The translations under genes and the position numbers were made by a program. Below the pieces are notes generated by a model. It saw only the letters and a program-made list of their open reading frames with translations, had not been told where the DNA came from and did no database searches. This document shows, one piece after another, positions 4,498-20,279 of a stretch of DNA of 64,000 bases. Every line of letters starts with the position of its first letter. Position 1 is the stretch's first letter. The DNA comes from Gammaproteobacteria bacterium (lineage in GTDB: Bacteria > Actinomycetota > Acidimicrobiia > Spongiisociales > UBA4744), in contig JAACED010000005.1 in assembly GCA_011682695.1 (NCBI GenBank), positions 2,488 to 66,487 on the forward strand, written 5' to 3'.

Positions 4498-5721
4498 TCA
4501 ATCCGCGATGATCACGATCTCGAGTTCGTTTCTGGCCGCCGCCAGCGACGTCTCGACCTCGAGAGGAGTGCCGGCTCTGGCGAAGAGAAAGCCGAGATGG
4601 CGTGCCCCGTCGGGGAGCGGGATCACGTACGTACCCGGTGGGATCGTGACGGCAACCTCGGTGATGCCGGGCACAGCCCTGGCTGCGTCGAGACCGTTGA
4701 CCGTCCGCAACGTTCCCGCGCTCGGCACAGGGACCGCCAGCACTCCGGAAGCGATGTCTTCACGGTGGGTGTTCACGCGCATCCCCAGGGCATGCCTGAG
4801 CAGCAGATCCTCCAAGGTCGTTCCGAGGAGTCCGAAGTGCAAAGAACGGCCGCGCAATCCTCCGATCGAGCGAGCTGCGACTTCGATGATCGCCACCCGA
4901 CTCCCGTGGATGCGAAGCTTGGCGTGGATGGGACCTTCCCGTAGTCCCAGCGCCCGGACGGCGCGCGTCGCCACCGTCTCGACCTCCTCGAGGATCTCGG
5001 GGTGGAGTCTCGACGGTGTCACGAGCATGGTCTCTGCGAAGTACGGGCCGTCCATCGGCTCCGGCTTGTCGAAGAGAGCCAGGACACGTAAGGCTCCTTC
5101 GACGAGGAGGCCTTCCAGGACGATCTCCCTGCCCGGGATGTAGCGTTCGATGAGCACCAGTTCATTCGGATTCTGACCGGCAACGGCGAGTATACGACGG
5201 ATTCGTTCGACGACAGGCGGCACCTGAAGCGGGTGGTCGACTCTGATGACGCCTCTGCTTCCAGAGAGCGAGAGGGGCTTGAGTACGACCGGAGTTCCCA
5301 CGACTTCCGCAAGTGCGACGGTGTCGCTCGATGGCGCCGCGAGTTCGAAGGTGGGCTGTGGAACTTCGTGTTCGTTCAGCACGTTTCGCAGGATCGCCTT
5401 GTTGCGCGTGGCGGCAACCGATGCAGGGTGATTGTGCGCCAGTCCGAGCCCCTGGGAAGCAATCGCCGCGATCATGGCTCCGGCATCGTCCACCGGGATC
5501 ACGGCGTTGATCGGGCGACGGTCGCCCGCCTGGACGATGGCCTCCGCCGAACGGTGCAGGTCCCGAGAGTCGATGTGGATGAATCCCTCGCTGCTCATCG
5601 AGGCGTGACGCTTCTCGGAGGCGATGACCAGATCGACTCCCAGTGATCTGCCGGCCTCGATGAAGTCGTCGGCCCGGTAGGTTCCGGTGGGGAGAATGAG
5701 GACCGCTGTGCTCACGGGCAC
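4498..5721 (-). CDS. ATP-grasp domain protein (unknown ligase)
   Basis: 407 aa with ATP-grasp-type central region (VVLKPLSLSGSRGVIRV..., ERYIPGREI). The substrate cannot be inferred. Confidence 0.6.
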   Translation of the reverse strand: MPVSTAVLILPTGTYRADDFIEAGRSLGVDLVIASEKRHASMSSEGFIHIDSRDLHRSAEAIVQAGDRRPINAVIPVDDAGAMIAAIASQGLGLAHNHPASVAATRNKAILRNVLNEHEVPQPTFELAAPSSDTVALAEVVGTPVVLKPLSLSGSRGVIRVDHPLQVPPVVERIRRILAVAGQNPNELVLIERYIPGREIVLEGLLVEGALRVLALFDKPEPMDGPYFAETMLVTPSRLHPEILEEVETVATRAVRALGLREGPIHAKLRIHGSRVAIIEVAARSIGGLRGRSLHFGLLGTTLEDLLLRHALGMRVNTHREDIASGVLAVPVPSAGTLRTVNGLDAARAVPGITEVAVTIPPGTYVIPLPDGARHLGFLFARAGTPLEVETSLAAARNELEIVIIAD

Positions 5722-5784
5722 ATGATCGTCGTTTCTCGCCGTTAGAGGCCCTCAATCCGTGGGCGACCCTGTGCGTACGACGGG

Positions 5785-6432
5785 ATGTTGCATGGGGCTT
5801 CCGGTACGATGTCACCCGCCATGGCACAGACACTGACGATCACCGACCTCGCTCGCGCCAAGATCATAGAGATCCGGGACCAGGAGGACGGGGAAGTCGA
5901 AGCGGTGCTCTTGCTCGAAGTGAGCGGAATGCAGGGTGATGATTTCGCGTATGAGCTGAGCTTCGTACCGCTCCCACACGTGGAGCGGACGCATCGTATC
6001 GAGCGCCATGGTGAGCTTGCGCTCGCTCTGCGTAATGAAGACCTCGACAAGCTCGATGGCGCTCTTCTGGATGTGAGGGCCGGTGGATTGGCGATGCAGA
6101 ACCCGAACCGTCCTGCGAGCCCGACCTTTGATTCAGGATCGTCTGGGACGTTGGAGGGATCGTTGGCCGAGCAGGTCGCTCAAGTCATCACGCAACAGGT
6201 GAATCCGGCGATCGCTTCACATGGCGGCGCAGCGGAGCTCGCCGGTGTGGAAGGCCGGGACGTGTATCTGCGGCTGCTCGGCGGATGCCAAGGATGCGGA
6301 CTCGTCTCGGTCACATTGCGGCAGGGAATCGAGCAGATCCTTCGTCGTGTGATTCCGGACCTCGGAGAGATCATCGACGTTACCGACCATCAGGCCGGAA
6401 CGAATCCCCACTATGAATCCGAGAAGAAGTAG
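5785..6432 (+). CDS. nfuA: Fe-S cluster assembly protein, NfuA-like (A-type carrier-like N-domain plus Nfu/NifU C-domain)
   Basis: C-terminal CQGCGL (CxxC) Nfu motif preceded by HesB/IscA-like region. The true start may be an internal Met/Val a few codons downstream. Confidence 0.7.
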   Translation: MLHGASGTMSPAMAQTLTITDLARAKIIEIRDQEDGEVEAVLLLEVSGMQGDDFAYELSFVPLPHVERTHRIERHGELALALRNEDLDKLDGALLDVRAGGLAMQNPNRPASPTFDSGSSGTLEGSLAEQVAQVITQQVNPAIASHGGAAELAGVEGRDVYLRLLGGCQGCGLVSVTLRQGIEQILRRVIPDLGEIIDVTDHQAGTNPHYESEKK

Positions 6433-6465
6433 TTGACACTCCCGGGGTCCCGATACTCTTGACGC

Positions 6466-7143
6466 ATGGACTGGCCGCGCACGGTCGAGGATCTTCGCGA
6501 TGTGCAGACTCGGCTTGGTTCGACACGGCCGTGTGTCTTCCCCGTGCCGGAGACCCCGTCCGTCGGCGGCGTGTTCGTCTGCTTTCCGAGAGGTGGGATG
6601 GGAGCAGGCGCTGCCGGTGACCCGGGATGGGCGGCGGCCGTGGTGATGCAGGGCAGGCGACGTGCTCAGGCTGCAACGGTGAGGGGCTCTGCGGGTGCCG
6701 CCTACCGGCCGGGATTCCTCGCCTTGCGTGAAGGGCCTCTCCTCGCAGCAGCCGTGGATGCTCTCGAGCGAAAGCCCGACGTGCTCATCGTCAACGCGAC
6801 CGGTCGTGACAATCCTCGCCGTTGTGGACTCGCCGTGCATCTCGGGGCCGTGCTCGACATTCCCACCGTCGGAGTTACGCACCGACCGCTCGTGGCGTCC
6901 GGGGCGTGGCCGCAGGAGGGGCGTTGGTCCAGATCCCCACTGATGTTGGGAGGAGAGGTCGTCGGGTACTGGTTTCGGACCAGTGTCGGGACACGTCCCG
7001 TATGTGTGCATGCCGGATGGCGAACCGGCCCGGACCTTGCCGTGGAGATCGTGAGGCTCGTGACGGGTCGGTTTCGTACTCCGGAACCCTTGCGTCGGGC
7101 GAGAACGGCTGCTCGTCGTTTTCGCACCGCACAACGTTTCTGA
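6466..7143 (+). CDS. nfi: Endonuclease V (deoxyinosine 3' endonuclease)
   Basis: PGFLALREGP and NPRRCGLAVHLGAVLDIPTVGVTH match the conserved EndoV motifs (PYIPGLLAFRE / ...HLG...DIPTIGVAK). Confidence 0.8.
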   Translation: MDWPRTVEDLRDVQTRLGSTRPCVFPVPETPSVGGVFVCFPRGGMGAGAAGDPGWAAAVVMQGRRRAQAATVRGSAGAAYRPGFLALREGPLLAAAVDALERKPDVLIVNATGRDNPRRCGLAVHLGAVLDIPTVGVTHRPLVASGAWPQEGRWSRSPLMLGGEVVGYWFRTSVGTRPVCVHAGWRTGPDLAVEIVRLVTGRFRTPEPLRRARTAARRFRTAQRF

Positions 7144-7727: not shown

Positions 7728-8522
7728 ATGCGAGAGGTCACGTTTGATGGCGCCGAGTGCCCTGTGTACTGCCGGGTGTGGGAGCCTGCGGACCGCGTCG
7801 ACCGGATCGTCCTGATCGTTCACGGCTACGCCGAACACGGCGGGCGCTACGAGCACGTAGCGGACGCTCTCGTTGGCGAAGGTGCGGCCGTATATGCGCC
7901 CGATCACATCGGACACGGTCTGTCGGGCGGAGAGCGTGCTCTGATCAGCGATTTCGAGCATGTTGTGGATGACCTGCATCACGTTGCCGCAATGGCTCGA
8001 AGCGAACATCCCGGCGTTCCGCTCATCGTTGTCGGGCATTCCATGGGGGGGTTGATCGGTGCGCGGCTCGCAGAGCGCTATCCAGACGAGGTGGCGGGCG
8101 TTGTGTTCATGGGCGCGGTGATTGGAGATTGGGATTGGGCGAGACAGGCCCTCGAGGATCCGTCGATGATGGCGACACCGTCGGATGTCGCCGGCATGTC
8201 CGGTGATCCGGCGGCCCAACGCTCCTATGCGGCGGACCCGTTGGTGTATCACGGTCTGTACAAGCGGCCGCTGCTCGTCGCGGAGGTGCAGGCACTCGAC
8301 CGGTTCAACGCCGAGCTGGATCGTCTCACGATGCCGATCTTGTTCATGCACGGGACCGATGATCCGTTCGTGCCGTATCAGACCTCCTTGGACGCGGTGC
8401 TCCGCATGCCGTCCACGGATGTGACGATCCGGCTGTTCAAGGGTGATCGGCACGAACTCGTGAACGAACGTGACCGTGCCGAGGTCATCGCCGAACTCTG
8501 CAGGTTCGTTGCCCGGTTCTGA
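7728..8522 (+). CDS. Alpha/beta hydrolase (lysophospholipase / monoacylglycerol-lipase-like)
   Basis: 264 aa; HGYAEHGGRY, GHSMGG nucleophile elbow, C-terminal Asp/His region. Confidence 0.8.
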   Translation: MREVTFDGAECPVYCRVWEPADRVDRIVLIVHGYAEHGGRYEHVADALVGEGAAVYAPDHIGHGLSGGERALISDFEHVVDDLHHVAAMARSEHPGVPLIVVGHSMGGLIGARLAERYPDEVAGVVFMGAVIGDWDWARQALEDPSMMATPSDVAGMSGDPAAQRSYAADPLVYHGLYKRPLLVAEVQALDRFNAELDRLTMPILFMHGTDDPFVPYQTSLDAVLRMPSTDVTIRLFKGDRHELVNERDRAEVIAELCRFVARF

Positions 8523-8528
8523 GCCGTC

Positions 8529-9305
8529 CTACGTCCAGCCTTGCAGGTTGAAGAGCGCCGTGAGCCTGTCCGACATGTTCGGAGCAACTGTCCCCAGCCA
8601 CGCATAGACGCGTCCGCTGAAGGCGGGGACGTAGACCTCCGAGCGAGGCCGTCGGATCGCCGAGAGCACGGCGGTCGCCACCTTCTCGGGTGGCATCTTC
8701 TTTTGAATCTTCGGGACACGCAGTCCTTCGAAGGGAGCGGTGTCCACTCTTCCGGGGTAGATGCTCGTCACGGCGATGCCGCGGGCGGCGAGTTCCTGGC
8801 GGGCAACGCCGGCGAAACCCGAGAGAGCGTGCTTCGCCGCCGAATATGCCGCTTCCAGAGGGACGCCCTTCTTTCCGTCGAGGGAGTTGACGAATACCAA
8901 CTGACCGCCCTGCTCCAGGAACGGGAGCGCTTCGAGGGCAGTGTTGAGAGCCCCGAAGTAGTTCACCGCCATGACGGCGTGCCAATCCGCAGCGGTGGTT
9001 GCTTCGACAGGAGCTTTGAGCCAGATTCCGGCGTTCGCCACCACGACGTCGATTCGTCCCCATCGTTGCACGGTACGTTCGATCAGGCCGCGGACCTGGT
9101 CGCGATCGGTGACGTCGATGGGGACGGCGAGCGCCTGACCTCCGCTTGCGGCGATCTCGGCCGCCAGGTCTGTGAGGAGTGCCTCTCTGCGGGCCGCAAC
9201 GGCCACGTTGGCGCCGTGGGCACCGAGGGCGAGTGCGGTCGCCCTGCCGATCCCCGAAGAAGCGCCGGTGACGACCACGACGCTGTCTCGAATAGCCCGC
9301 CTCAT
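8529..9305 (-). CDS. SDR family NAD(P)-dependent oxidoreductase
   Basis: TGASSGIG Rossmann motif, NAG, YxxxK catalytic motif (YSAAKHAL). Confidence 0.85.
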   Translation of the reverse strand: MRRAIRDSVVVVTGASSGIGRATALALGAHGANVAVAARREALLTDLAAEIAASGGQALAVPIDVTDRDQVRGLIERTVQRWGRIDVVVANAGIWLKAPVEATTAADWHAVMAVNYFGALNTALEALPFLEQGGQLVFVNSLDGKKGVPLEAAYSAAKHALSGFAGVARQELAARGIAVTSIYPGRVDTAPFEGLRVPKIQKKMPPEKVATAVLSAIRRPRSEVYVPAFSGRVYAWLGTVAPNMSDRLTALFNLQGWT

Positions 9306-9358
9306 TCTCCTTCACTCTAGGAGGCTGCGACGTAGTCTGGACTGGCGAAGGAGGTGCG

Positions 9359-10570
9359 ATGGGTTTTCGACAGTATCCGACGAGCGATGCGAACTACGAC
9401 GCATACGGCACGTACATCTCTCCCGGGAAAGTGGCGCTGTATCGTCAACTGGAACTCGGTCTGGTGATGGGATCCAGGGATGGGGCCGTCTTCACGGACG
9501 CCTACGAGGGAACCCGACTCTACAACTGCCACTGCAACGGCGGTGTCTTCAATCTCGGCCACAGGAATCCGCGCGTCCTCAGCGCCGTTCGCACTGCGTT
9601 GGACTCGTTCGATATTGGGAATCATCACCTCATCTCCGGGATGAGAGCCAGGCTCGCGGAGCGGCTCGCTGCAACGACCGGCGGTGCGTTGTCCGGTGTG
9701 ATCTTTGGCGTGGGAGGAGGAGAAGGGATCGATCTTGCCCTGAAAGCGGTTCGAGGAGTGACCGGTCGACAGAAGATCGTTTCTGCGAAAGGCGGCTACC
9801 ACGGGCATACGGGGCTTTCCGTGGCAGCCGGTGATCCCGAATACCGTACCCCGTTCGGCCCGAACCTTCCCGGCTTCGTACAGGTCCCATTCGACGATAT
9901 CGATGCGCTTGTCACCGAGGTCGATTCCGACACTGCCGCGGTGCTGCTCGAGCCGGTGCCGGCGACCCTCGGCATGCCGATTGCAGCCGATGGCTACTTC
10001 GCATCCGTTGCAGAGCTCGTGAACTCCAGAGGCGCTCTCCTGGTGCTCGATGAAGTGCAGACGGGGCTTGGTCGGACGGGAACCATGTGGTGCTATCAGC
10101 AACTCGACGTCGTCCCGGACATCCTCGTCACGGGAAAAGGGTTGAGCGGAGGGATCTATCCGATCAGCGCCACCTTGATGAGCCCCGCGGTGTTCTCTTT
10201 CTTCGACGAGCTGCCGTTTGTGCACCTCTCCACCTTCGGCGGGGCGGAACCGGGATGTGCAGCCGCTCTCGAGGTCTTGGATATCGTCGAGACACCCGGC
10301 TTTCTCGACCGTGTACTGGAGCTTGCCGAACGCTTCCGAGCCGGACTCTCCGGTCTGCCTTTCGAACTCCGACAGCGAGGGATGATGATGGGGCTGGTCT
10401 TCCCCGCGTCCAATGCGGCCGTGATGGCCGCCAAGATGTTCTTCGACGCCGGCGTCTTCGTCGTGTGGGCCGAGAACGATCGTTCGGTACTGCAGTTCCT
10501 TCCGCCACTGATCCTCGGCGATGAGGAAGCCGACGACATCATCGCTCGCGTGCGGGGAATCTTCACATGA
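9359..10570 (+). CDS. Class III PLP-dependent aminotransferase
   Basis: 403 aa; DEVQTGLGRTG and surrounding fold-type I class III signature. The substrate is unknown. Confidence 0.85.
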   Translation: MGFRQYPTSDANYDAYGTYISPGKVALYRQLELGLVMGSRDGAVFTDAYEGTRLYNCHCNGGVFNLGHRNPRVLSAVRTALDSFDIGNHHLISGMRARLAERLAATTGGALSGVIFGVGGGEGIDLALKAVRGVTGRQKIVSAKGGYHGHTGLSVAAGDPEYRTPFGPNLPGFVQVPFDDIDALVTEVDSDTAAVLLEPVPATLGMPIAADGYFASVAELVNSRGALLVLDEVQTGLGRTGTMWCYQQLDVVPDILVTGKGLSGGIYPISATLMSPAVFSFFDELPFVHLSTFGGAEPGCAAALEVLDIVETPGFLDRVLELAERFRAGLSGLPFELRQRGMMMGLVFPASNAAVMAAKMFFDAGVFVVWAENDRSVLQFLPPLILGDEEADDIIARVRGIFT

Positions 10571-11460: not shown

Positions 11461-13064
11461 TGAGAACCACGACCGGGGTCGTGTTCCCTCTGGGCATCGC
11501 CGCCGCCGTGTTGCTCGTCGGTGCATGTGCACCGGAGGCATCCGAACCTGTCCGGTCGTCGCCCGAGACCCGGGCTCCGACGGCTTCGACCACCACAACC
11601 TCCACGCCTCCAGCCATGACGGCCGTCACAGTGACCTCGACGACCTCGACGACGATCACTACGCCGGAGACGACACGGCGTCCCACCATCCGCATCGCGA
11701 TGGTTGGTGACGTCATGCTCGGCCGTGGTCTCTCGCGCATCGTTCGGAACGACCCGCAGAGCATCTTCGAAGATGTGCGATTCGTCCTGTCGGACGTGGA
11801 TATCGCCGGGGCGAACATGGAGTCGCCGTTGACGAATCGGCCTCACATCGCACTCAACCCGTACGCGCTCGAGGCGAGGCCGGAGACGGCCGGGCTGCTC
11901 GCCGCGGCGGGTTTCGATGTCCTGTCGGTCGCGAACAACCATGCGGGTGACGCAGGGCGGGCATCGGTGATCGATAGCGTCGAAGCGATCAATGACGCCG
12001 GGATGCAGGCGGTCGGTGGCGGGGTGAACCTGAGCGAAGCCGTGCGGCCGGTCATCGTGGAGGTGCGAGGGCTTCGTGTGGGGTTCCTCGCATTCGATGC
12101 GACGAGGGCGGGTACTCCGGCGAGTGAGAATCGGGCGGGCATCGCACCGTGGGACGACGAGACGGTTCGTGCCGCAGTGACAGGACTGCGTCCCTGGGTC
12201 GATCTGCTCGTAGTGGCCGTGCACGGCGGGGTCGAGTATCGCACGTGGACCGACCCGCACATGGCAGCGCTTGCAGAGGAACTCAGCGGCTGGGGCGTCG
12301 ACGTGGTGTGGGGGAGTGGGCCACATGTCGTCCAACCCGTCTTCCTGATCGATGGTGCACGACCGACCGTGGTGGCGACGAGTCTCGGCAACTTCCTCTT
12401 CGACCAGGGTGATTCCGCGACAAAGGTGGGGGCGATCCTCGAGGTCCTTGCCGACGCCGACGGTGTCGTCGCGTACCGGGTAGCGACGGTCCAGCACCGT
12501 GACCGGCGGGTGCATTTCGACCAGTGGGACGACCCAGACGGTGACGCGGCGATGCTCGGCACCGAATGGTGGAGCCTCGGCCGCGGTTTCGAACCCCTCG
12601 AGCCCGACGAGCCCGGGGATCTCGAGCGGTTCCGGTGGGGTGATGTGGTCGACGCGACTCGAGGCGACGTGGACGGTGACGGGAGGGATGAGATCGTCGT
12701 GGCGTTCCGCCGGCCTTATCAGGAGAACCCGGTGAACGCACTGTTCCCCGATAGGCCGTGGGCCGACGTGTTGGGACGCAGCGCCCACATCGGTGTGTTT
12801 CGAGCCTCGGATCTCGAGCCCGAATGGATCGCGGGAACCCTGTTCCGACCCGTCAGACGGGTCGTGGCATGCGACGGAAGCCTTGCCGTCGGATACGGCT
12901 CGGACGAGACGGACGGTGTCGTGGCGTCTGGAGCGTGGCGGTGGCGTGGGTTCAGTTTTCTCATCGCTCCGACCTTGGATCGCGATGCCGCGCTCGGGTG
13001 CGCGGATATCGATGGTGATGGTCGAACGGACCCGATCCTGTTCAGTAGACCGGGAACTCCATGA
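11460..13064 (+). CDS. CapA/PGA_cap family metallophosphatase-like lipoprotein with Thr/Ser-rich linker and C-terminal FG-GAP/VCBS-like Asp-rich repeats
   Basis: Start ATG overlaps the previous stop (TGATG). Lipobox LLVGACAP. CapA core (IAMVGDVMLGR...ANNHAGD...VAVHGGVEY). C-terminal DVDGDGRDE / DIDGDGRTD repeats. Confidence 0.75.
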   Translation: MRTTTGVVFPLGIAAAVLLVGACAPEASEPVRSSPETRAPTASTTTTSTPPAMTAVTVTSTTSTTITTPETTRRPTIRIAMVGDVMLGRGLSRIVRNDPQSIFEDVRFVLSDVDIAGANMESPLTNRPHIALNPYALEARPETAGLLAAAGFDVLSVANNHAGDAGRASVIDSVEAINDAGMQAVGGGVNLSEAVRPVIVEVRGLRVGFLAFDATRAGTPASENRAGIAPWDDETVRAAVTGLRPWVDLLVVAVHGGVEYRTWTDPHMAALAEELSGWGVDVVWGSGPHVVQPVFLIDGARPTVVATSLGNFLFDQGDSATKVGAILEVLADADGVVAYRVATVQHRDRRVHFDQWDDPDGDAAMLGTEWWSLGRGFEPLEPDEPGDLERFRWGDVVDATRGDVDGDGRDEIVVAFRRPYQENPVNALFPDRPWADVLGRSAHIGVFRASDLEPEWIAGTLFRPVRRVVACDGSLAVGYGSDETDGVVASGAWRWRGFSFLIAPTLDRDAALGCADIDGDGRTDPILFSRPGTP

Positions 13065-15287
13065 CCGGTCGTGTCGTTCTACAATCCCGAGGGGGGAAGA
13101 TCGTGCGAACGTTCGCGGCAATCGTCGTCATTGCTCTTTTCGTGGTGGCGTGTACGAGTGGCTCTGAGGCTCCGACGACCTCTGCGGCCGTGTCGACATC
13201 GACATCGACATCGACGTCCGCGCATCCGAGCACGACCACGTCCGCGCATCCGAGCACCACCCCGTCCACGGCCCCCGTCGCCGACGCGACCCTCACCGTT
13301 CAGCAGCAGCCTCGGTCGCTGAGCCCGTTCGCCGGGTACACGCTGGTTCCGATGGACGAGGCAGGCACCTATCCGGGCCCTGCCTGGCCGACATCGCTCG
13401 ATGGTGTCGTGATCTCGCCGGAAGCCGAGTACCTCGTCGGGCGGCCCGAGGCTGCACGGGCACTCACCGATCACGGTTTCGTCGTCGTACCGGGCTACGC
13501 GGCGCTCTTCCAGGATGTCTACGCGCAGGCGCCCTACGACAACCACGCGATTTTCGTGACCACCGACGCCGGCTACCACGTTCTTCATCTTGCCTTCAGC
13601 AAGGTGCTGCGTGACACCGAGCAGAACTCCCTCCTCCCAGTGCTCGAAGATCTCGTCACCCGCTCGGTCGCCGCCGCCCGAGGCCAGGCGGCAGCACTCG
13701 CAGGCACGGGCCAGGCGGACCAGGCGTCGCGAGTCGCGCAGCTCTTCGAAGCGGCAGCGGTGCTGCTCGGTCTCGACGTCGGGCCGGTCGGCCCGCTTGC
13801 AGACCAGGAGGTCGGCCTTGCCACCGAAGCGGCGCAGATGACCACGTCGCCGATCACCGGCTTCGCCGCATGCAATCGAACGCAGTCGCCACGCGGGTGT
13901 GTCGACTACAGCCTGTTCAAACCCAGAGGTCATTACACGCGCAACGAGGATCTCGAGCGGTATTTCCGGGCGATGTCGCTTGTCGGGCAGGAAGGCGCAT
14001 CATTCGTCGCCGGGATGGACGGCGACACTCCGGTCGTCGACGAACCGTCGATGCAGTTCGCCCTCCTTGTCGTCCGGGCGATGCAGGCGGACCCGGTTAT
14101 CGAGCAGGACTGGCGGCTCCTCTACGAACCTACTGCGTTCATGGTCGGCATGGCCGACGACTACACGCCGTTCGAGCTCGCAGCAGTCGCCGTAGCGGTC
14201 GCCGGAGACCGGTGGTCGACCGACGATTTCGCCGACACCGGCCTCCTGCAGACCGTCGGGGGGAAACTGCTCGCGACCCGTGCGGTTGGAATCAATCCGG
14301 AGGCGGCGTCGGTCCGCATCATGGGAGCACGGTTCGTCATCGATTCGTAGATTCTCGACCAGCTCGCCTGGCCGAACGTCGGAAAGGAGCCGCCGGTGAA
14401 ACGACGTGTGTACGTGTCGCCGCTCGACGTCGCCGCGACATTCGATTCCAATCTGGCGCTCGGCATCCAACGACAGGCGGGCGAGGACCGGTACCTGCAC
14501 TATGAGGACCAGATGGCCGCCATGCGCGAACTCGTCTCTGTACGTGCGGAAGACGACTGGGCCGCGACCGTATATGACGCGTGGTTGTCTGCCCTCCAGC
14601 CGGTGTGGCGTGAGCACGGTGACGCATTCCCGCCGTTCATGCGCAACGACGCCTGGACCGCGAAGGACCTCCAGACGGGCCTCGGGTCGTACACGGAGCT
14701 GAAGCACGACACGATCCTCTACGCGAAACAGGAATTCGCCGCGGAGGGCGGCGGGGACTGGACCGAGCTACATCCGCGACACTGGGTCGAGCCGGATCCG
14801 GTCGCATTCGAGAGGATGTCGCAGGTCGCGGCGCTGCTCCAGAGCGGCCTGGCCGAGCGGGGCCATCAGCACCGAGGACAACGACTGGCTCGGTGGGGTC
14901 GGGTCCGCCATGGAAGGCCTCTGGTATGCCTCGTCGGACGCCGACCCCAAGACCGGGGCGGTCGCGTCGGGGGATTCTCGCGACGCCCTCATTGCGGACA
15001 TCGGACGGGCGTCTTTCGCGTATCTGGAGATCGGCACCGGGGTGATCGACCAGATCCTCGTCCTCGTCCCCGACGACGCCGGACGGTTCCAGGTGGCAAT
15101 CGGCGGCGTCTACTCGTACTACGAGTTCTGGCGCCCCGAAGAGCAGGGCCGCCTCACCGACGAGGAGTGGTGGAAGCTCCTCGACGACGGTCGTGCACCG
15201 GACCGGTCGGCGCCGATGATCTTGCCCGATCCGGATGACGGTGAGCGTCACCGTCCCGCCTGGCAGGCCGCATTCCTGGTGCCCTGA
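13061..15287 (+). pseudogene. Large secreted lipoprotein gene (about 740 codons) interrupted by an in-frame TAG (14348..14350) and a +/-1 frameshift near 14855..14865
   Basis: Three track ORFs (13061..14350, 14396..15238, 14910..15287) read as one continuous protein if the TAG is read through and one base is adjusted in a CGGGGCC run. Lipobox VVACTSG with a Ser/Thr linker. Family is uncertain (possibly DUF3160-like). Confidence 0.5.
13192..13262 (+). repeat. Coding tandem repeats in the lipoprotein linker: (ACATCG)n followed by a 24-nt direct duplication (GTCCGCGCATCCGAGCACNACC x2)
   Basis: Read directly. Encodes STSTSTS and SAHPSTTT/SAHPSTTP. Confidence 0.6.
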
Positions 15288-15616: not shown

Positions 15617-16279
15617 ATGACGCCCGATTTCACCCTGATCGATCAAGGGGGCAACCCGTGGACACTCTCGGAGCATCTCGACAGCGCCGTCGTGCTGCTC
15701 TTCCTGCGCGGTGACTGGTGACCGTACTGCAACGGCCAGCTGGTCAGTCTGGCATCACGATACGACGACCTACTCGCCGCCGGGGGTCGGATTGCCGTGA
15801 TCAGCGTCGACACCCCACAACAGCATGCTGCACTGATCGAGAAACTCGGGCTGCGCTTCCCGATGTTGTCCGATCCCGACCGCAGTCGAGCCATCAGGCC
15901 GTACGGGGTTGCCGACCACAAGGATGCCCGCAATATCGCCCGGCCCGCCTTCGTCATCGTCACTCCGCAAGGAGATGAGGTCGAGAGGCGGTTGTCGGGC
16001 GACTTCGCCGATCGTCCTACCGAGGACGAACTGATCGCCGCTGTCGGCAAGCTTGGGATGGCCCCGGTCGAAGCGGAGCCGATCGCACTCGGTCCGGCGT
16101 CTCCCGGCCCGAATGCGATGCCGGTCGCTGCCATGGAGCCGTACTATCGGGGAGCGAAGTTCGCCGTCACCGCAATGCGGTTGCGACATCCCGAATTGGA
16201 GGAGGAGGCGAAGCGCTACATCGACGAACTCGACCGTTACATCGAAGCCGTGCGCGACCTCAAGAGGTCCAACGGCTGA
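15617..16279 (+). CDS. Candidate selenoprotein: peroxiredoxin/redoxin (AhpC-TSA, thioredoxin-fold) family with in-frame TGA (15719..15721) at the first position of a W-U-P-Y-C redox motif
   Basis: Contiguous reading from ATG 15617 gives MTPDFTLIDQGGNPWTLSEHLDSAVVLLFLRGDW-TGA-PYCNGQLVSL...FPMLSDPDRSRAIRPYGV... This runs in frame into the track ORF 15797..16279. The Prx-like motifs (FTLxD, VVLxF, FPxLSD...YGV) flank the TGA. An RBS-like GGAAGAGAG lies upstream. Confidence 0.6.
15735..15753 (+). promoter_or_regulatory. Candidate bacterial SECIS-like hairpin (GCCAG-CUGGUCAGU-CUGGC) 13 nt downstream of the UGA
   Basis: 5-bp GC-rich stem with a 9-nt loop containing GGU. Position is compatible with bSECIS spacing. 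Not folded computationally. Confidence 0.3.
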
Positions 16280-16287
16280 CAGGGGGG

Positions 16288-18237
16288 ATGATGGACAAGA
16301 CAGCCTGGAGGAAGCTCGACATCGGTGACCTGGCCGTGGGCCGGGTTACAACGGTGATCGTCGAAGGCCGTGCTCTGGCCGTGAGCCGCACCGAGTCCGG
16401 TTGGGGAGTACTCGACAACCGTTGTCCGCATCAAGGGGGTCCACTCGGCGACGGAGAGATCGAAGGTCCGTACCTGCTCTGTCCCTGGCACGGCTACGAG
16501 TACGACCCTGTCACCGGCGAGCCGCCGGCAGGGTTCAGCGATGTCGCCACCTGCTATCGCCTCGAGGAACGCGACGGCGGCCTGTACGTCGAGCTTCCCG
16601 TCCCTTCCGCGCAGCCGACCCTGATGGACCAGATGGTCGATGTCATGACCGGGTGGGGCGTGGACACGGTGTTCGGAATGGTCGGTCATTCCAATCTCGG
16701 GCTTGCCGACGCTCTGCGAAGGGCCGAACAAGACGAGCGCCTGCGGTACATTGGGATCCGGCATGAGGGCGCGGCTGCCTTCGCGGCTTCTGCCTACGGC
16801 AAACTGACCGGCCGCCCCGCAGCCTGCTTTTCGATCGCCGGGCCGGGAGCAACGAACCTGTTGACGGGCCTATGGGACGCAAAGGTCGACCGTGCACCGA
16901 TTCTGGCACTCACCGGACAGGTGCAGACCCAGGTGCTGGGCCCGGGAGCCTTCCAGGAGGTCCCGCTCACCGAAGCGTTCGCGGCCGTCGCCAACTTCAG
17001 TCAGACGGTGCTCGTACCCGACAACGCGACGGAGTTGATGGCGCTCGCCCTCAAACATGCGCTGGTCGAGCGCGGTGTCGCCCATCTCGTGTTCCCAGAT
17101 GAAGTGCAAAGCCTGCCGGGCCTGAGCGAACCGCCGGAGCGACTGCGAACCGGACGGGTCGCGTTCGACGGGATCGCGCCGCCGAAAGAGGAACTGTCGA
17201 GGGCGGTCGACCTCCTCGAAGGCGCTCAGCGGCCGGTGATCATCGCCGGAAACGGGGCACGCCAGGCTCGCCGGCTGGTGATCGAGCTTGCGGAACACAT
17301 CGATGTACCCGTGATCACGACGTTTCGTGCCAAGGGTCTCATTGGTGATGACCACCCATTGGGGGGCGGTGTGGTGGGGCGCTCGGGCACACCCATCGCT
17401 TCTGCGCTGATGGCGCGAGCGGATGCCCTGCTGGTCCTCGGTGCATCGTTCTCGAACCATTCGGGTATCGCGACATGGGTGCCGACCATCCAAGTCGATT
17501 TCGATCGCATGACCCTGGGCAAGTTCCATCCCGTCGACGTCCCGATCTGGGGTGAGATCGGGCGGACGCTCGAGCTCCTGAAGGGGGCGCTGTCACCGGT
17601 TGATCGTCCCGAGCAACGCGCCACGGTCGAACTCAAGCGGACCAGGTGGCGCGAGGAGACCGTGCGAAGAGCCGCCATGACTGACGAGTCCGGCCGTATG
17701 CATCCGGCCCGCGTATTCACCACCCTGTCCGGGCTGGTGCCTACGGACGCGGTGATCTCTGTCGACGTCGGCAACAACACCTACGCGTTCGGTCACTACT
17801 TCGAGGCGAAAGGAGGCCAGGATGTTCTCATGTCCGGCTACCTGGGGTCGATCGGCTTCGGTTTCCCGGGTGCAATGGGGGCGTGGGCCGCAACACGTGG
17901 CACCAACCGCAAAGTGATCTCGGTCTCTGGAGACGGAGGCTTCGGCCAGTACCTCGCCGAGTTCACCACCGCCGTGAGGTACGGGATGCCGATTACCCAC
18001 GTGCTGCTGAACAACGACGAGCTGGGCAAGATCAGCAGGGAGCAGATCGGTGCGGTGCGGCCGGTGTGGCAGACGTCGCTGGTCAATCCCGATTTCGCCG
18101 AGTACGCGCGCCTATGTGGTGGGCGGGGATTCAGGGCCGACGATCCTGCCGACCTGGAAGCCGTGTTCTCGGAGGCACTCGCCGTCTCCAATGGACCATC
18201 ACTGGTCGAGGTCACCGTCTCTGCGCTCGACGTCTGA
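16288..18237 (+). CDS. Rieske [2Fe-2S] domain fused to a thiamine-diphosphate-dependent enzyme (acetolactate-synthase/pyruvate-oxidase-like)
   Basis: N-terminus CPHQGGPL...CPWHGYEYD (Rieske CxH...CxxH). The remainder has ThDP-enzyme Pyr, central and PP domains (GDGGF...NN). Confidence 0.8.
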   Translation: MMDKTAWRKLDIGDLAVGRVTTVIVEGRALAVSRTESGWGVLDNRCPHQGGPLGDGEIEGPYLLCPWHGYEYDPVTGEPPAGFSDVATCYRLEERDGGLYVELPVPSAQPTLMDQMVDVMTGWGVDTVFGMVGHSNLGLADALRRAEQDERLRYIGIRHEGAAAFAASAYGKLTGRPAACFSIAGPGATNLLTGLWDAKVDRAPILALTGQVQTQVLGPGAFQEVPLTEAFAAVANFSQTVLVPDNATELMALALKHALVERGVAHLVFPDEVQSLPGLSEPPERLRTGRVAFDGIAPPKEELSRAVDLLEGAQRPVIIAGNGARQARRLVIELAEHIDVPVITTFRAKGLIGDDHPLGGGVVGRSGTPIASALMARADALLVLGASFSNHSGIATWVPTIQVDFDRMTLGKFHPVDVPIWGEIGRTLELLKGALSPVDRPEQRATVELKRTRWREETVRRAAMTDESGRMHPARVFTTLSGLVPTDAVISVDVGNNTYAFGHYFEAKGGQDVLMSGYLGSIGFGFPGAMGAWAATRGTNRKVISVSGDGGFGQYLAEFTTAVRYGMPITHVLLNNDELGKISREQIGAVRPVWQTSLVNPDFAEYARLCGGRGFRADDPADLEAVFSEALAVSNGPSLVEVTVSALDV

Positions 18238-18259
18238 GTTCGGGCCTATCCTTTCGACG

Positions 18260-18826
18260 ATGCCGACGTTCACATGCCAGAACTGCGGGAACGCGTTCAC
18301 GCTTCCTCGACAAGTACTCGACCGATATCCAGGCTGGACACCGCCGCTGTGCCTCGACTGCCGTGACGCACGGAGCACATCGGAACCGGTTGCGAACGAC
18401 GTTGGTCCCCACACGGGTGTGTTCACCGATGGAAGCGCCTCACCGAACCCGGGACCTGGCGGCTGGGGCGCCGTCTACGTCGTCGACGACGAGATCATCG
18501 CCGAGGCATATGGGCACGCGGAGCACACCACGAACAATCGTATGGAACTCACCGCGGTGATCGCGGCACTCGATCTCGTTCCCGAAGGCACCCCCATGAC
18601 CATCTACTCGGATTCGAATCTGGTGGTGCGCACCATCAACGAGTGGGCAGCAGGGTGGGAGAAGCGTGGATGGAGGCGGAAGACGGGACCGGTCGAGAAT
18701 GTGGATCTGGTAAAGAAGGCGTACTACGGGTGGCGGCCCGAATTGACGTTGAAGTGGATCAAAGGGCACGCCGGGTACCGATGGAACGAGTACGCGGATG
18801 AACTCGCCAACCGGTGGCGGGACTGA
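18260..18826 (+). CDS. rnhA: Ribonuclease HI with N-terminal 4-Cys zinc-ribbon-like extension
   Basis: TDGSASPNPGPGGWG, NNRMELTAVI, IYSDSNLVV, KWIKGHAGYRWNEYADELA RNase H motifs. N-terminal CQNCG...CLDC. Confidence 0.8.
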   Translation: MPTFTCQNCGNAFTLPRQVLDRYPGWTPPLCLDCRDARSTSEPVANDVGPHTGVFTDGSASPNPGPGGWGAVYVVDDEIIAEAYGHAEHTTNNRMELTAVIAALDLVPEGTPMTIYSDSNLVVRTINEWAAGWEKRGWRRKTGPVENVDLVKKAYYGWRPELTLKWIKGHAGYRWNEYADELANRWRD

Positions 18827-18832
18827 AGAGCC

Positions 18833-19813
18833 CTACTCTCCCGGAAACGTCAGCCCGATCTGATCTCTGATCCGATCCAGGATGTGCATCACCGCCAGTG
18901 TGTCGTCGAGGCTCATCCGCGGGCTCTCCGTTGCTCCTTCCAGAAGGCAGCGGTGTACTTCTTCGACTTCGAATCGGTAACCCGATCCTTCGTGACTCGT
19001 GTCGATCGTCTCGACGACGCTTCCTCGACGTTCGATGGAGAGCATGGGGGAGTGGTGGAACGGAGCATGGACCCGGACATGTCCGTCGGGTCCGGAAACG
19101 AATGCTTCCATGCTCGAATCTGCCACGAAAGAGGTGCTCAGCGTGGACAAGCCTCCATTGCGATGATGGAGGACGATTCCGGCCTGTTCATCGATTCCTG
19201 CATCGGACATTTCGGCGGTCGCGGTGATGCGATCGGGGGCACCGAGCAGCATCATGGCGAAGGTCACCACGTAGACGCCGAGATCCATGATCGTTCCGCC
19301 GCCGAGTGAGCGGTCGAACAGACGGCCGCTGGGGTGAGGTCCTGCGAGGAATCCGAAGTTGGCCTGGACCGAGCGGACTTCCCCGAGGCGTCGTGAACGT
19401 ACGATGGCCTCGAGGCGGCTGATCGCCGGCTGAAACCGCATCCACATTGCCTCCATCAGAAACACATCTCGCTTTCGGGCGGCGGCGACCATCTCCTCGG
19501 CCTGCCGGTGGTTGAGGGCGAACGGCTTCTCGCAGAGAACCGGCTTTCCGTGTTCGAGGGCCGTCAGTGTGTTCGCGTGATGCAGTTCGTTGGTCGTGGC
19601 GACGTACACGACGTCGACATTCGGATCGCGAGCGACCTCCTCGTATGTGCCGTACCAACCGGGAATGTCGTGGAGATCGGCGAATGCTTTCGCTCGTTCT
19701 CTCGACGAGGAACCGATTGCGACGACTTCTCCGCCCGGTACTTGACGTATGGCCTCGACGAGCGAGGACGCGATGCGCCCTGCTCCCATGATGCCCCATC
19801 TCACATTCTTCAT
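18833..19813 (-). CDS. Gfo/Idh/MocA family oxidoreductase
   Basis: Start MKNVRWGIMGAGRIASS (Rossmann), EKP motif. The longer upstream extension in the track is antisense to the next gene. Confidence 0.8.
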   Translation of the reverse strand: MKNVRWGIMGAGRIASSLVEAIRQVPGGEVVAIGSSSRERAKAFADLHDIPGWYGTYEEVARDPNVDVVYVATTNELHHANTLTALEHGKPVLCEKPFALNHRQAEEMVAAARKRDVFLMEAMWMRFQPAISRLEAIVRSRRLGEVRSVQANFGFLAGPHPSGRLFDRSLGGGTIMDLGVYVVTFAMMLLGAPDRITATAEMSDAGIDEQAGIVLHHRNGGLSTLSTSFVADSSMEAFVSGPDGHVRVHAPFHHSPMLSIERRGSVVETIDTSHEGSGYRFEVEEVHRCLLEGATESPRMSLDDTLAVMHILDRIRDQIGLTFPGE

Positions 19814-19844
19814 GGCCCCGACATTACCTCGGTACAGTGGGCCC

Positions 19845-20279
19845 ATGAACGACCGGCCTGTCGTCGCGATCTCCGTTCCGCTCTTCGGCGACGAGCGCCG
19901 CAAGAACTGGGCGAAGGTGGTCGAGAGGGTGGATGAGGCCAAGAGTTCCGGCTGGGCGTTCGAGGGCGAGTTCATCGCAACCGGGGGAGTGCAAGACGTC
20001 CCTGTGGGTTCTGTGATCCTCGTGTACGGAGAGCGCGGATCCAGGGCACACCCGCAAGTCGAGGTGGGGGTGTTCACCGTCAACGCGGACGGAACGCTGT
20101 CGCGCCATGCCGGTGCAAAGGGACGGGCATGGGCTCGGACACTGAGAGATGACGTCATCGGGTTGCTCGAAGAGGCCGAAGGAAAACCGATCACACTTCT
20201 TCAGTGGTCGCCCGACCTGATTCGATATGAGGACGACGCTCTGCTCTCGGAGTTGCGCCGACGCGGCAGGGATGTCTGA
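19845..20279 (+). CDS. Hypothetical protein (144 aa)
   Basis: ORF with balanced composition starting at MNDRPVVAISVPLFG. No recognisable family. Confidence 0.45.
   Translation: MNDRPVVAISVPLFGDERRKNWAKVVERVDEAKSSGWAFEGEFIATGGVQDVPVGSVILVYGERGSRAHPQVEVGVFTVNADGTLSRHAGAKGRAWARTLRDDVIGLLEEAEGKPITLLQWSPDLIRYEDDALLSELRRRGRDV

Follow-up and report, generated by a model that had tools for sequence, protein, structure and literature searches.

A Rieske ferredoxin-like domain joined to a pyruvate oxidase-like thiamine diphosphate enzyme: an uncharacterised, widespread family that probably supplies electrons to single-electron acceptors

The fusion gene and its domains

The 64000 bp stretch of DNA analysed here (contig JAACED010000005.1 of GenBank assembly GCA_011682695.1; coordinates 2488 to 66487, forward strand), referred to below as the window, is from a bacterium deposited as Gammaproteobacteria but placed in the Acidimicrobiia (Spongiisociales; UBA4744) in the GTDB lineage. 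One of its genes encodes a Rieske domain followed by the core of a thiamine diphosphate (ThDP)-dependent enzyme. Judged by comparison with its relatives, the product represents a widespread, so far uncharacterised variant of the pyruvate oxidase branch that carries its own one-electron carrier, and the family probably feeds electrons from the oxidation of 2-oxo acids into single-electron acceptors.

The gene is one uninterrupted open reading frame (ORF) of 649 codons plus a stop codon, with no internal stop or frameshift (Table 1). A first-pass annotation of the window had reported a Rieske motif in cis with complete pyrimidine-binding (Pyr), central and pyrophosphate-binding (PP) ThDP domains, and the hidden Markov model search that it proposed located all four Pfam domains on the same polypeptide. 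The Rieske domain (PF00355) was found at residues 14–78 with an E value of 3.9e-11 and a score of 43.1 bits against a gathering cut-off of 20.3, and TPP_enzyme_N (PF02776), TPP_enzyme_M (PF00205) and TPP_enzyme_C (PF02775) at residues 111–225, 304–430 and 493–642, respectively. A separate Rieske ORF, brought into frame by a missed stop codon or a frameshift, was looked for and is not present, as the frame is continuous and the homologues are collinear with it.

The sequence includes the Rieske ligands C46-P-H48-x16-C65-P-W-H68, which fit the pattern CxH-X(15-17)-CxxH, the ThDP/Mg motif G548-D-G-G-F...N575-N576, which agrees with the pattern GDG-X(24-27)-NN, and E160 as the catalytic Glu. The central TPP_enzyme_M domain is the nucleotide-binding domain that holds flavin adenine dinucleotide (FAD) in relatives such as pyruvate oxidase (POX) and acetohydroxyacid synthase (AHAS). 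An AlphaFold model of the protein, built from 77 sequences, was of high confidence over the full length (predicted local distance difference test score, pLDDT, 88.1; predicted template modelling score, pTM, 0.87), and the linker block of about 6 residues that joins the Rieske and Pyr domains scored 86–95.

Table 1. Coordinates in the window of the fusion gene, its parts and the two adjacent genes
Feature	Coordinates	Strand	Basis or remark
Whole Rieske-ThDP fusion gene	16288..18237	+	Single ORF, four Pfam domains, collinear homologues
N-terminal Rieske ferredoxin-like domain, residues 1-104	16288..16599	+	PF00355; model pLDDT 80-95
Rieske cluster-ligand motif C46...H68	16423..16491	+	Sequence; ligands kept in 120-121 of 121 homologues
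Linker PSAQPT (~6 residues), Rieske to Pyr	16600..16617	+	Pfam limits and model
Pyr (TPP_enzyme_N) domain, including E160 and the F222-Q223-E224 loop	16618..16962	+	PF02776, E 1.1e-32
Central (TPP_enzyme_M) domain	17197..17577	+	PF00205, E 1.2e-33
PP (TPP_enzyme_C) domain	17764..18213	+	PF02775, E 3.2e-32
ThDP/Mg motif G548-D-G-G...N575-N576	17929..18015	+	Sequence; conserved in homologues
K581 codon, aligned with PoxB F465 / L. plantarum POX F479	18028..18030	+	Alignment to 3ey9
AhpC/TSA (Prx-like) gene with in-frame TGA at 15719-15721, upstream neighbour	15617..16279	+	Outside conserved unit
RNase HI gene, downstream neighbour	18260..18826	+	PF00075, E 1.6e-33; outside conserved unit

The nearest relatives of known structure of residues 1–110 are Rieske ferredoxins from oxygenase systems, namely 2qpz of naphthalene dioxygenase (E 6.5e-8), CarAc (1vck) and T4moC (1vm9), which have the CxH...CxxH motif in common with the fusion. 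Like these proteins, the Rieske domain of the fusion is without the extra disulfide cysteines of the bc1/b6f Rieske proteins, and because of this absence and the similarity to the oxygenase ferredoxins its cluster is expected to be of the low-potential type. The oxygenase ferredoxins are free-standing and are reduced by NAD(P)H-dependent flavoprotein reductases, whereas in the fusion the Rieske domain is covalently attached to the ThDP enzyme, which by analogy would take the role of the reductase.

Distribution and conservation of the family

A search of 5.8 billion proteins was made, and the best 120 clusters were examined. All of them have the same four Pfam domains, at 69–93 % identity and with 98–100 % coverage of the query. 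A separate search of contigs from one genome per species found 326 stretches with a relative, and the best 80 of these 326 were used for analysis of genetic context. The 80 loci encode full-length fusions, 79 of which also match the Rieske part alone. Most are metagenome-assembled genomes of Acidimicrobiia, and some are labelled Gaiellales/Thermoleophilia, Promineifilaceae or Anaerolineae. Other members were found in Polyangiales, in Alphaproteobacteria and in Acidobacteria bacterium Mor1, where the gene is on a 5.99 Mb contig and is annotated merely as 'pyruvate oxidase'. When the Rieske and Pyr parts were used together as the query against a library clustered at 50 % identity, fusions were recovered down to ~35–45 % identity. 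The Rieske-ThDP fusion is a conserved, widespread family, and its phylogenetic distribution, which the first-pass annotation had left to be checked, takes in mainly Acidimicrobiia together with several other phyla.

In an alignment of 121 sequences, C46 and C65 are present in all, and H48 and H68 in 120 each. Glu is found at the position of E160 in every one of 167 Rieske-fused and 79 rubredoxin-fused homologues (the latter are described below), and the GDGG...NN motif is conserved across both sets.

The first-pass annotation had suggested an uncharacterised reaction, and no characterised member of the family was found. No NCBIfam equivalog model was reached at its cut-off, and no solved structure recovered by sequence or fold searches takes in the Rieske part. 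A search of the full-text literature, of which coverage was incomplete, did not yield any paper in which a ThDP enzyme is fused to a Rieske or rubredoxin domain, and neither type is described in a review of iron-sulfur (Fe-S) flavoenzymes. The fusion architecture itself is already findable in domain databases.

Relationship of the catalytic core to pyruvate oxidases

The top NCBIfam model was the pyruvate oxidase model PRK08611 (407.5 bits; cut-off 742), followed by the PoxB/pyruvate dehydrogenase models at 292–330 bits, among them PRK09124 (292 bits; cut-off 792). TIGR02720 scored 290 bits (cut-off 638), and the best acetolactate synthase (ALS)/AHAS models, at 282–287 bits (cut-offs 509–538), were below the oxidase and dehydrogenase models. 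All scores for curated families are far below their cut-offs. The nearest solved structures by sequence were Escherichia coli PoxB (3ey9, E 1e-64) and Lactobacillus plantarum POX, at E values of ~1e-64 to 1e-62 and with matches that span only residues 116–645. The best fold matches of the model were L. plantarum POX, PoxB, AHAS and the Corynebacterium glutamicum pyruvate:quinone oxidoreductase (PQO), at ~27 % identity, and Foldseek gave template modelling (TM) scores of 0.7–0.89 to POX, PoxB and AHAS. These comparisons place the ThDP core nearest to pyruvate oxidase, PoxB and PQO rather than to acetolactate synthase. Hence, where the core had been described as 'acetolactate-synthase/pyruvate-oxidase-like', the second half of the description can be kept and the first should be dropped.

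PoxB (3ey9/3eya) and PQO (9ev3–9ev6) have the same Pyr-central-PP fold as the fusion, and the three have in common the catalytic Glu, the FQE loop, the GDGG...NN motif and a Glu at the position of E483 in L. plantarum POX. The fusion differs from PoxB and PQO in its additional N-terminal Rieske domain, in the absence of a C-terminal peptide and in the presence of Lys in place of F465. In PoxB this peptide is an amphipathic, membrane-binding, autoinhibitory segment, and PoxB and PQO use their tails to reach the quinone. The segment amounts to about 40–60 residues in PoxB, PQO and POX, and the PoxB and POX models run on for about 45 residues beyond the end of the fusion. The fusion ends 4 residues past the last aligned PoxB position (528 of 572), and across the 167 Rieske-fused and 79 rubredoxin-fused relatives the number of residues beyond the PP domain has a median of 0 and never exceeds 3. 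The acceptor of the fusion would accordingly differ from that of PoxB and PQO, being presumably a protein-bound one-electron centre and not a membrane quinone.

The phosphate-dependent, H2O2-forming pyruvate oxidases of L. plantarum and Aerococcus (1pox, 4fee, 1v5e) were the top Foldseek matches (E ~5e-45, TM 0.74–0.82). As against these enzymes, the fusion stays below the pyruvate oxidase cut-off of 742 bits, has Lys at the position of F479 and is without the C-terminal extension. The fused Fe-S carrier suggests that electrons are not simply passed to O2 as they are in POX.

The Lys residue is K581, which aligns with PoxB F465 and L. plantarum POX F479, the aromatic side chain that is located between ThDP and FAD and mediates electron transfer. 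Lys is found at this position in 161 of the 167 Rieske-fused and 77 of the 79 rubredoxin-fused homologues. The central domain shows little or no variation at G364-R365-S366, F388-S389-x-H391 and D404, which align to PoxB without gaps, in loops that would correspond to the FAD contacts of that enzyme.

Alternative N-terminal modules

Relatives of the same core were found with other N-terminal modules, none of them characterised. The proteins P0199, P0222 and P0228 (~600 aa) consist of a rubredoxin domain followed by the three TPP_enzyme domains. The metagenomic protein P0134 (873 aa) has a Fer4_19 domain, two zf-CDGSH domains and a Rieske domain before them, and hence four metal centres on one polypeptide. 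P0258 (546 aa) is a core without any N-terminal module. Identity to the ThDP core of the window protein is 46 % for P0199, 54 % for P0134 and 42 % for P0258, compared with ~27 % for PoxB. The carriers therefore differ, an Fe(Cys)4 rubredoxin in P0199 and a multi-cluster array in P0134, while the cores belong to one clade in which the C-terminal tail is absent. The Lys581 signature is common to the fusion and the rubredoxin-fused forms, and P0134 has Met at this position.

When the search was started from a rubredoxin form, rubredoxin- and Rieske-fused clusters were interleaved at 47–53 % identity. A tree of 65 non-redundant cores, built by neighbour joining with PoxB as the root, unites the Rieske, rubredoxin and multi-FeS forms in a single long-branched clade, with the rubredoxin forms at no fewer than three positions, some of them nested among Rieske forms, and P0134 also nested.

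As the Rieske domain can be replaced by rubredoxin, or extended to four centres, on the same catalytic core, the most natural reading of the swappable N-terminal domain is that it transfers electrons in an oxidative ThDP reaction. That the membrane tail is lost where a carrier is gained would fit a change of acceptor, with a one-electron centre on a protein in place of the membrane quinone. The idea of intramolecular electron transfer from an in-cis Rieske cluster, raised in the first-pass annotation, gains comparative support from the rubredoxin and multi-FeS relatives, and the transfer itself is a prediction.

The genomic contexts of the rubredoxin-fused relatives are variable. A free rubredoxin gene of 45 codons is located directly upstream of the rubredoxin-fused ThDP gene in loci L082 (coordinates 6751–6888) and L170 (coordinates 4827–4964), where the gene order is GFO/IDH/MocA, Amidohydro_2, rubredoxin, rubredoxin-ThDP, RND-efflux; this arrangement was seen in one syntenic lineage only.

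Association with a glutamate synthase-like protein

In Acidobacteria bacterium Mor1 (L081), a gene (coordinates 5340–6974) for a 544 aa protein with a Rieske domain and a PF01645 domain, the flavin mononucleotide (FMN) domain of glutamate synthase (GltS), lies 27 nt upstream of the Rieske-ThDP gene. The same pair is present in L083, with the Rieske-GltS-like gene at 8017–9660, and there the two genes are in the opposite order and 57 nt apart. Among the 80 genome loci, the Rieske-GltS-like gene is directly upstream of the fusion gene in nine. These are from Anaerolineae (L080), from Acidimicrobiia and other Actinomycetota (L049, L025, L051, L030, L070 and L024), from Thermoleophilia (L063) and from Gaiellales (L068). 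Viewed from the side of the partner gene, 19 metagenome loci have a ThDP core beside it, out of 80 in total and 50 with enough flanking sequence. These 19 cores are 54–72 % identical to that of the window protein and are mostly on the same strand, and the spacing is consistent with an intervening Rieske domain and a short gap.

The partner has invariant Rieske ligands and a GQGAKxGxGG motif in the alignment, and it keeps the glutamate synthase [3Fe-4S] motif C-x5-C-x4-C-P-V-G-I-A-T-Q. Its family (PF00355 plus PF01645, ~545 aa) is widespread, shows 74–80 % identity across phyla and carries 'glutamate synthase-related protein' as its sole annotation. Swapping of carriers in parallel to that seen in the ThDP enzymes was considered for this family and set aside, as its best 120 matches are all Rieske-fused and none is rubredoxin-fused. 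One metagenomic protein, P0249 (696 aa), has Glu_synthase (PF01645) followed by TPP_enzyme_N in a single predicted product; this may be a case of read-through, or the two genes of the pair may be truly fused.

Around the pair there is no third conserved gene, and the 64 kb window holds no copy of the Rieske-GltS-like gene. When the ORFs that flank the fusion gene in the 80 loci were clustered, no neighbour cluster was present in more than 12 loci; in this clustering the Rieske-GltS-like protein had been merged into the cluster of the fusion itself via the Rieske domain. No partner other than the adjacent Rieske-GltS-like FMN/[3Fe-4S] protein recurs in different phyla.

Proposed reaction and competing interpretations

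The interpretation that we favour, with moderate confidence, is that the protein is a soluble POX-like ThDP enzyme which would pass electrons through its own Rieske ferredoxin domain to a one-electron acceptor. The substrate would be a 2-oxo acid, by default pyruvate, and its decarboxylation on ThDP would give a hydroxyalkyl-ThDP carbanion/enamine. A flavin held by the conserved central domain, putatively FAD, would probably accept two electrons from this intermediate. The electrons would then be transferred singly to the Rieske cluster, which would reduce an external one-electron acceptor. Where the partner gene is present, the best candidate acceptor is the GltS-like protein, with a Rieske to [3Fe-4S] to FMN chain as in ferredoxin-dependent glutamate synthase. 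We infer cluster assembly, FAD binding, the direction of electron flow, the substrate and the acceptor from sequence comparisons.

Several points weigh against this interpretation. Because all curated family scores are well below their cut-offs, the choice of substrate is a guess. Since the electron-transfer Phe is replaced by a conserved Lys, the internal route of the electrons may differ from that in PoxB and POX. The conserved positions of the central domain do not separate FAD binders from non-binders. The tree on which the history of module exchange is based has no support values and gives a rough picture only. Finally, most loci, including the window, are without a conserved neighbour.

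More tentatively, the Rieske-ThDP and Rieske-GltS-like proteins may form a self-contained two-protein system in which low-potential electrons move from Rieske to Rieske, such that O2-tolerant oxidation of a 2-oxo acid on a POX scaffold drives a GltS-type reduction, for example the reductive amination of 2-oxoglutarate; we regard this reading as rather unlikely. If true, it would be an aerobic, POX-based analogue of pyruvate:ferredoxin oxidoreductase (PFOR) plus glutamate synthase that has no need of NAD(P)H or free ferredoxin.

PFOR and the related 2-oxo-acid:ferredoxin oxidoreductases (OFOR) are ThDP-dependent oxidative decarboxylases of 2-oxo acids with built-in Fe-S clusters that deliver single electrons to a ferredoxin-type acceptor. 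The likeness to the fusion is a functional analogy only, as PFOR belongs to an unrelated fold family with no homology beyond the ThDP-binding fold. PFOR has [4Fe-4S] clusters, uses CoA and is usually O2-sensitive, whereas the fusion combines a POX/AHAS scaffold with a Rieske domain. A reaction that is closer to PFOR in its chemistry, in which the Rieske cluster directly oxidises hydroxyalkyl-ThDP in two one-electron steps via a ThDP radical and no redox-active FAD takes part, is unlikely. The replacement of the POX/PoxB electron-transfer Phe by Lys throughout the fused clade would agree with such a flavin-free route, FAD binding cannot be demonstrated from the sequence, and one-electron carriers are the only redox modules that can be recognised in it. 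However, the nearest characterised relatives are all FAD users, and few parts of the family are better conserved than the loops of the central domain, which suggests that the ligand site is retained. In addition, the Rieske domain is joined to the N-terminus of the Pyr domain, and there is no indication that it reaches the buried ThDP.

Electrons might also run in the reverse direction, with the Rieske domain feeding them in, either for upkeep of a flavin in a carboligase or lyase or for a reductive acyl-ThDP reaction, and we regard this as similarly improbable. The direction of flow is not readable from the sequence, the ALS models also score well, and AHAS and glyoxylate carboligase are known to carry FAD without net redox catalysis. 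Set against this, the oxidase and dehydrogenase models are consistently above the ALS models, and the GltS-like partner is built as a consumer of electrons, from [3Fe-4S] to FMN as in ferredoxin-GltS. Moreover, reductive carboxylation would be thermodynamically unfavourable, because the 2-oxo-acid/acyl couple is a far stronger reductant than Rieske ferredoxins or rubredoxins.

That the Rieske domain is off the catalytic path, as a sensor of redox state, O2, NO or iron or as an oligomerisation module, is very unlikely. Fe-S domains do serve as sensors in other proteins, and the fusion gene is usually alone with no obvious acceptor gene close by, but replacement by rubredoxin and extension to four clusters would be expected of an electron wire and not of a specific sensor. 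Neither the coincidence of membrane-tail loss with carrier gain nor the recurrent pairing with another Rieske-fused redox enzyme fits a purely regulatory or structural part.

The genes on either side of the fusion gene in the window offer a further, decidedly improbable explanation, namely that a peroxiredoxin (Prx)-like selenoprotein, the fusion and ribonuclease HI (RNase HI) form a functional redox unit in which, for example, the Prx would remove H2O2 made by an oxidase. The first-pass annotation had read the three as a plausible small redox operon, and its spacing and order of the genes are right when read from the coordinates. All are on the same strand, the Prx-like stop codon (16277–16279) is 8 nt ahead of the fusion ATG at 16288, and RNase HI starts at ~18260, about 22 nt past the fusion stop. 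No significant terminator or promoter separates them: the scan gave nothing above expectation, with two terminator-like matches (one at 18232–18245, + strand) set against a shuffled expectation of 1.8. The same gene order is found in L001 and L002, and conservation of the TGA codon of the Prx-like gene in these backs a real selenoprotein. However, in tblastn comparisons only these 2 of the 80 loci, which are the closest relatives (fusions 86 % and 78 % identical, respectively), had genes for the Prx-like protein and RNase HI next to the fusion gene. This was also the outcome of the suggested check for co-occurrence of the Prx gene, with a U or C residue, in other genomes, and no Prx gene was seen beside family members of other lineages in the annotated contexts inspected. 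RNase HI, moreover, has no redox link. An operon with the selenocysteine-type Prx and RNase HI as a conserved unit is thus largely refuted by the locus counts, and the link of the two genes to the fusion is local synteny only. The tight spacing and the lack of a terminator above chance are compatible with co-transcription in the lineage of the window.

An artefact, in which two genes were fused by an assembly or sequencing error or a Rieske-like motif arose by chance, is refuted, as no point in its support was found, the ORF is continuous, the Rieske score is above the gathering cut-off and hundreds of assemblies, independent of one another and drawn from several phyla, show the same architecture.

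The characterised enzymes of the pyruvate oxidase branch pass their electrons to O2 or to a membrane quinone, and we know of no described member with a one-electron carrier of its own. In the whole of the clade described here, the membrane tail appears to have been swapped for a Rieske, rubredoxin or multi-cluster wire, in Acidimicrobiia and in several other phyla, which points to an unrecognised aerobic source of low-potential single electrons from 2-oxo acids that would operate without the O2-sensitive PFOR. The exchange of N-terminal modules, a Lys specific to the clade and the pairing with the GltS-like protein in different phyla together give a specific, testable and somewhat surprising hypothesis, the functional part of which is predicted from sequence. 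For enzymology the targets would be which cofactors the enzyme contains, what Lys581 does and where the electrons go. The pairing further hints at what a second large family, at present annotated only in generic terms, may do.

Neighbouring genes in the window

In the Prx-like gene, the TGA codon is located in a GDW-U-PYC motif. Both the TGA and the coding sequence on either side of it are kept in the L001 and L002 orthologues, and because of this conservation a genuine selenocysteine at this position is supported. No selenocysteine insertion sequence (SECIS) was recognised for this TGA, the local hairpin being no better than shuffled sequences (z 0.33) and Rfam giving no match, and no tRNA-Sec gene was found within the window. 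The RNase HI protein has an N-terminal extension of ~50 residues with two CxxC pairs (MPTFTCQNCG...CLDC) that resembles a zinc ribbon and precedes the RNase_H domain, and the same gene follows the fusion gene in L001 and L002.

The remaining neighbours in the window (PGA_cap, DUF3160, GFO/IDH/MocA and MarC genes) have no evident link to the fusion. The DUF3160 gene (coordinates 13061–15238, + strand) is cut into two ORFs in the same frame by an in-frame TAG at 14348–14350. At this site the L002 orthologue has TAC, encoding Tyr (VIDSYILDQL, compared with VIDS*ILDQL in the window), and the TAG is either a nonsense mutation, which would make the gene a pseudogene, or a sequencing error. An ORF of 176 codons (coordinates 19749–20279, + strand) that has no Pfam match is conserved in L001 and L002 at 66–76 % identity. 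The antisense GFO/IDH/MocA ORF (coordinates 18833–20194, - strand) has a long N-terminal extension, and it is this part that the 176-codon ORF overlaps; the start of this oxidoreductase is probably near MKNVRWGIMGAG, in which case the 176-codon ORF would be a separate, divergent gene.

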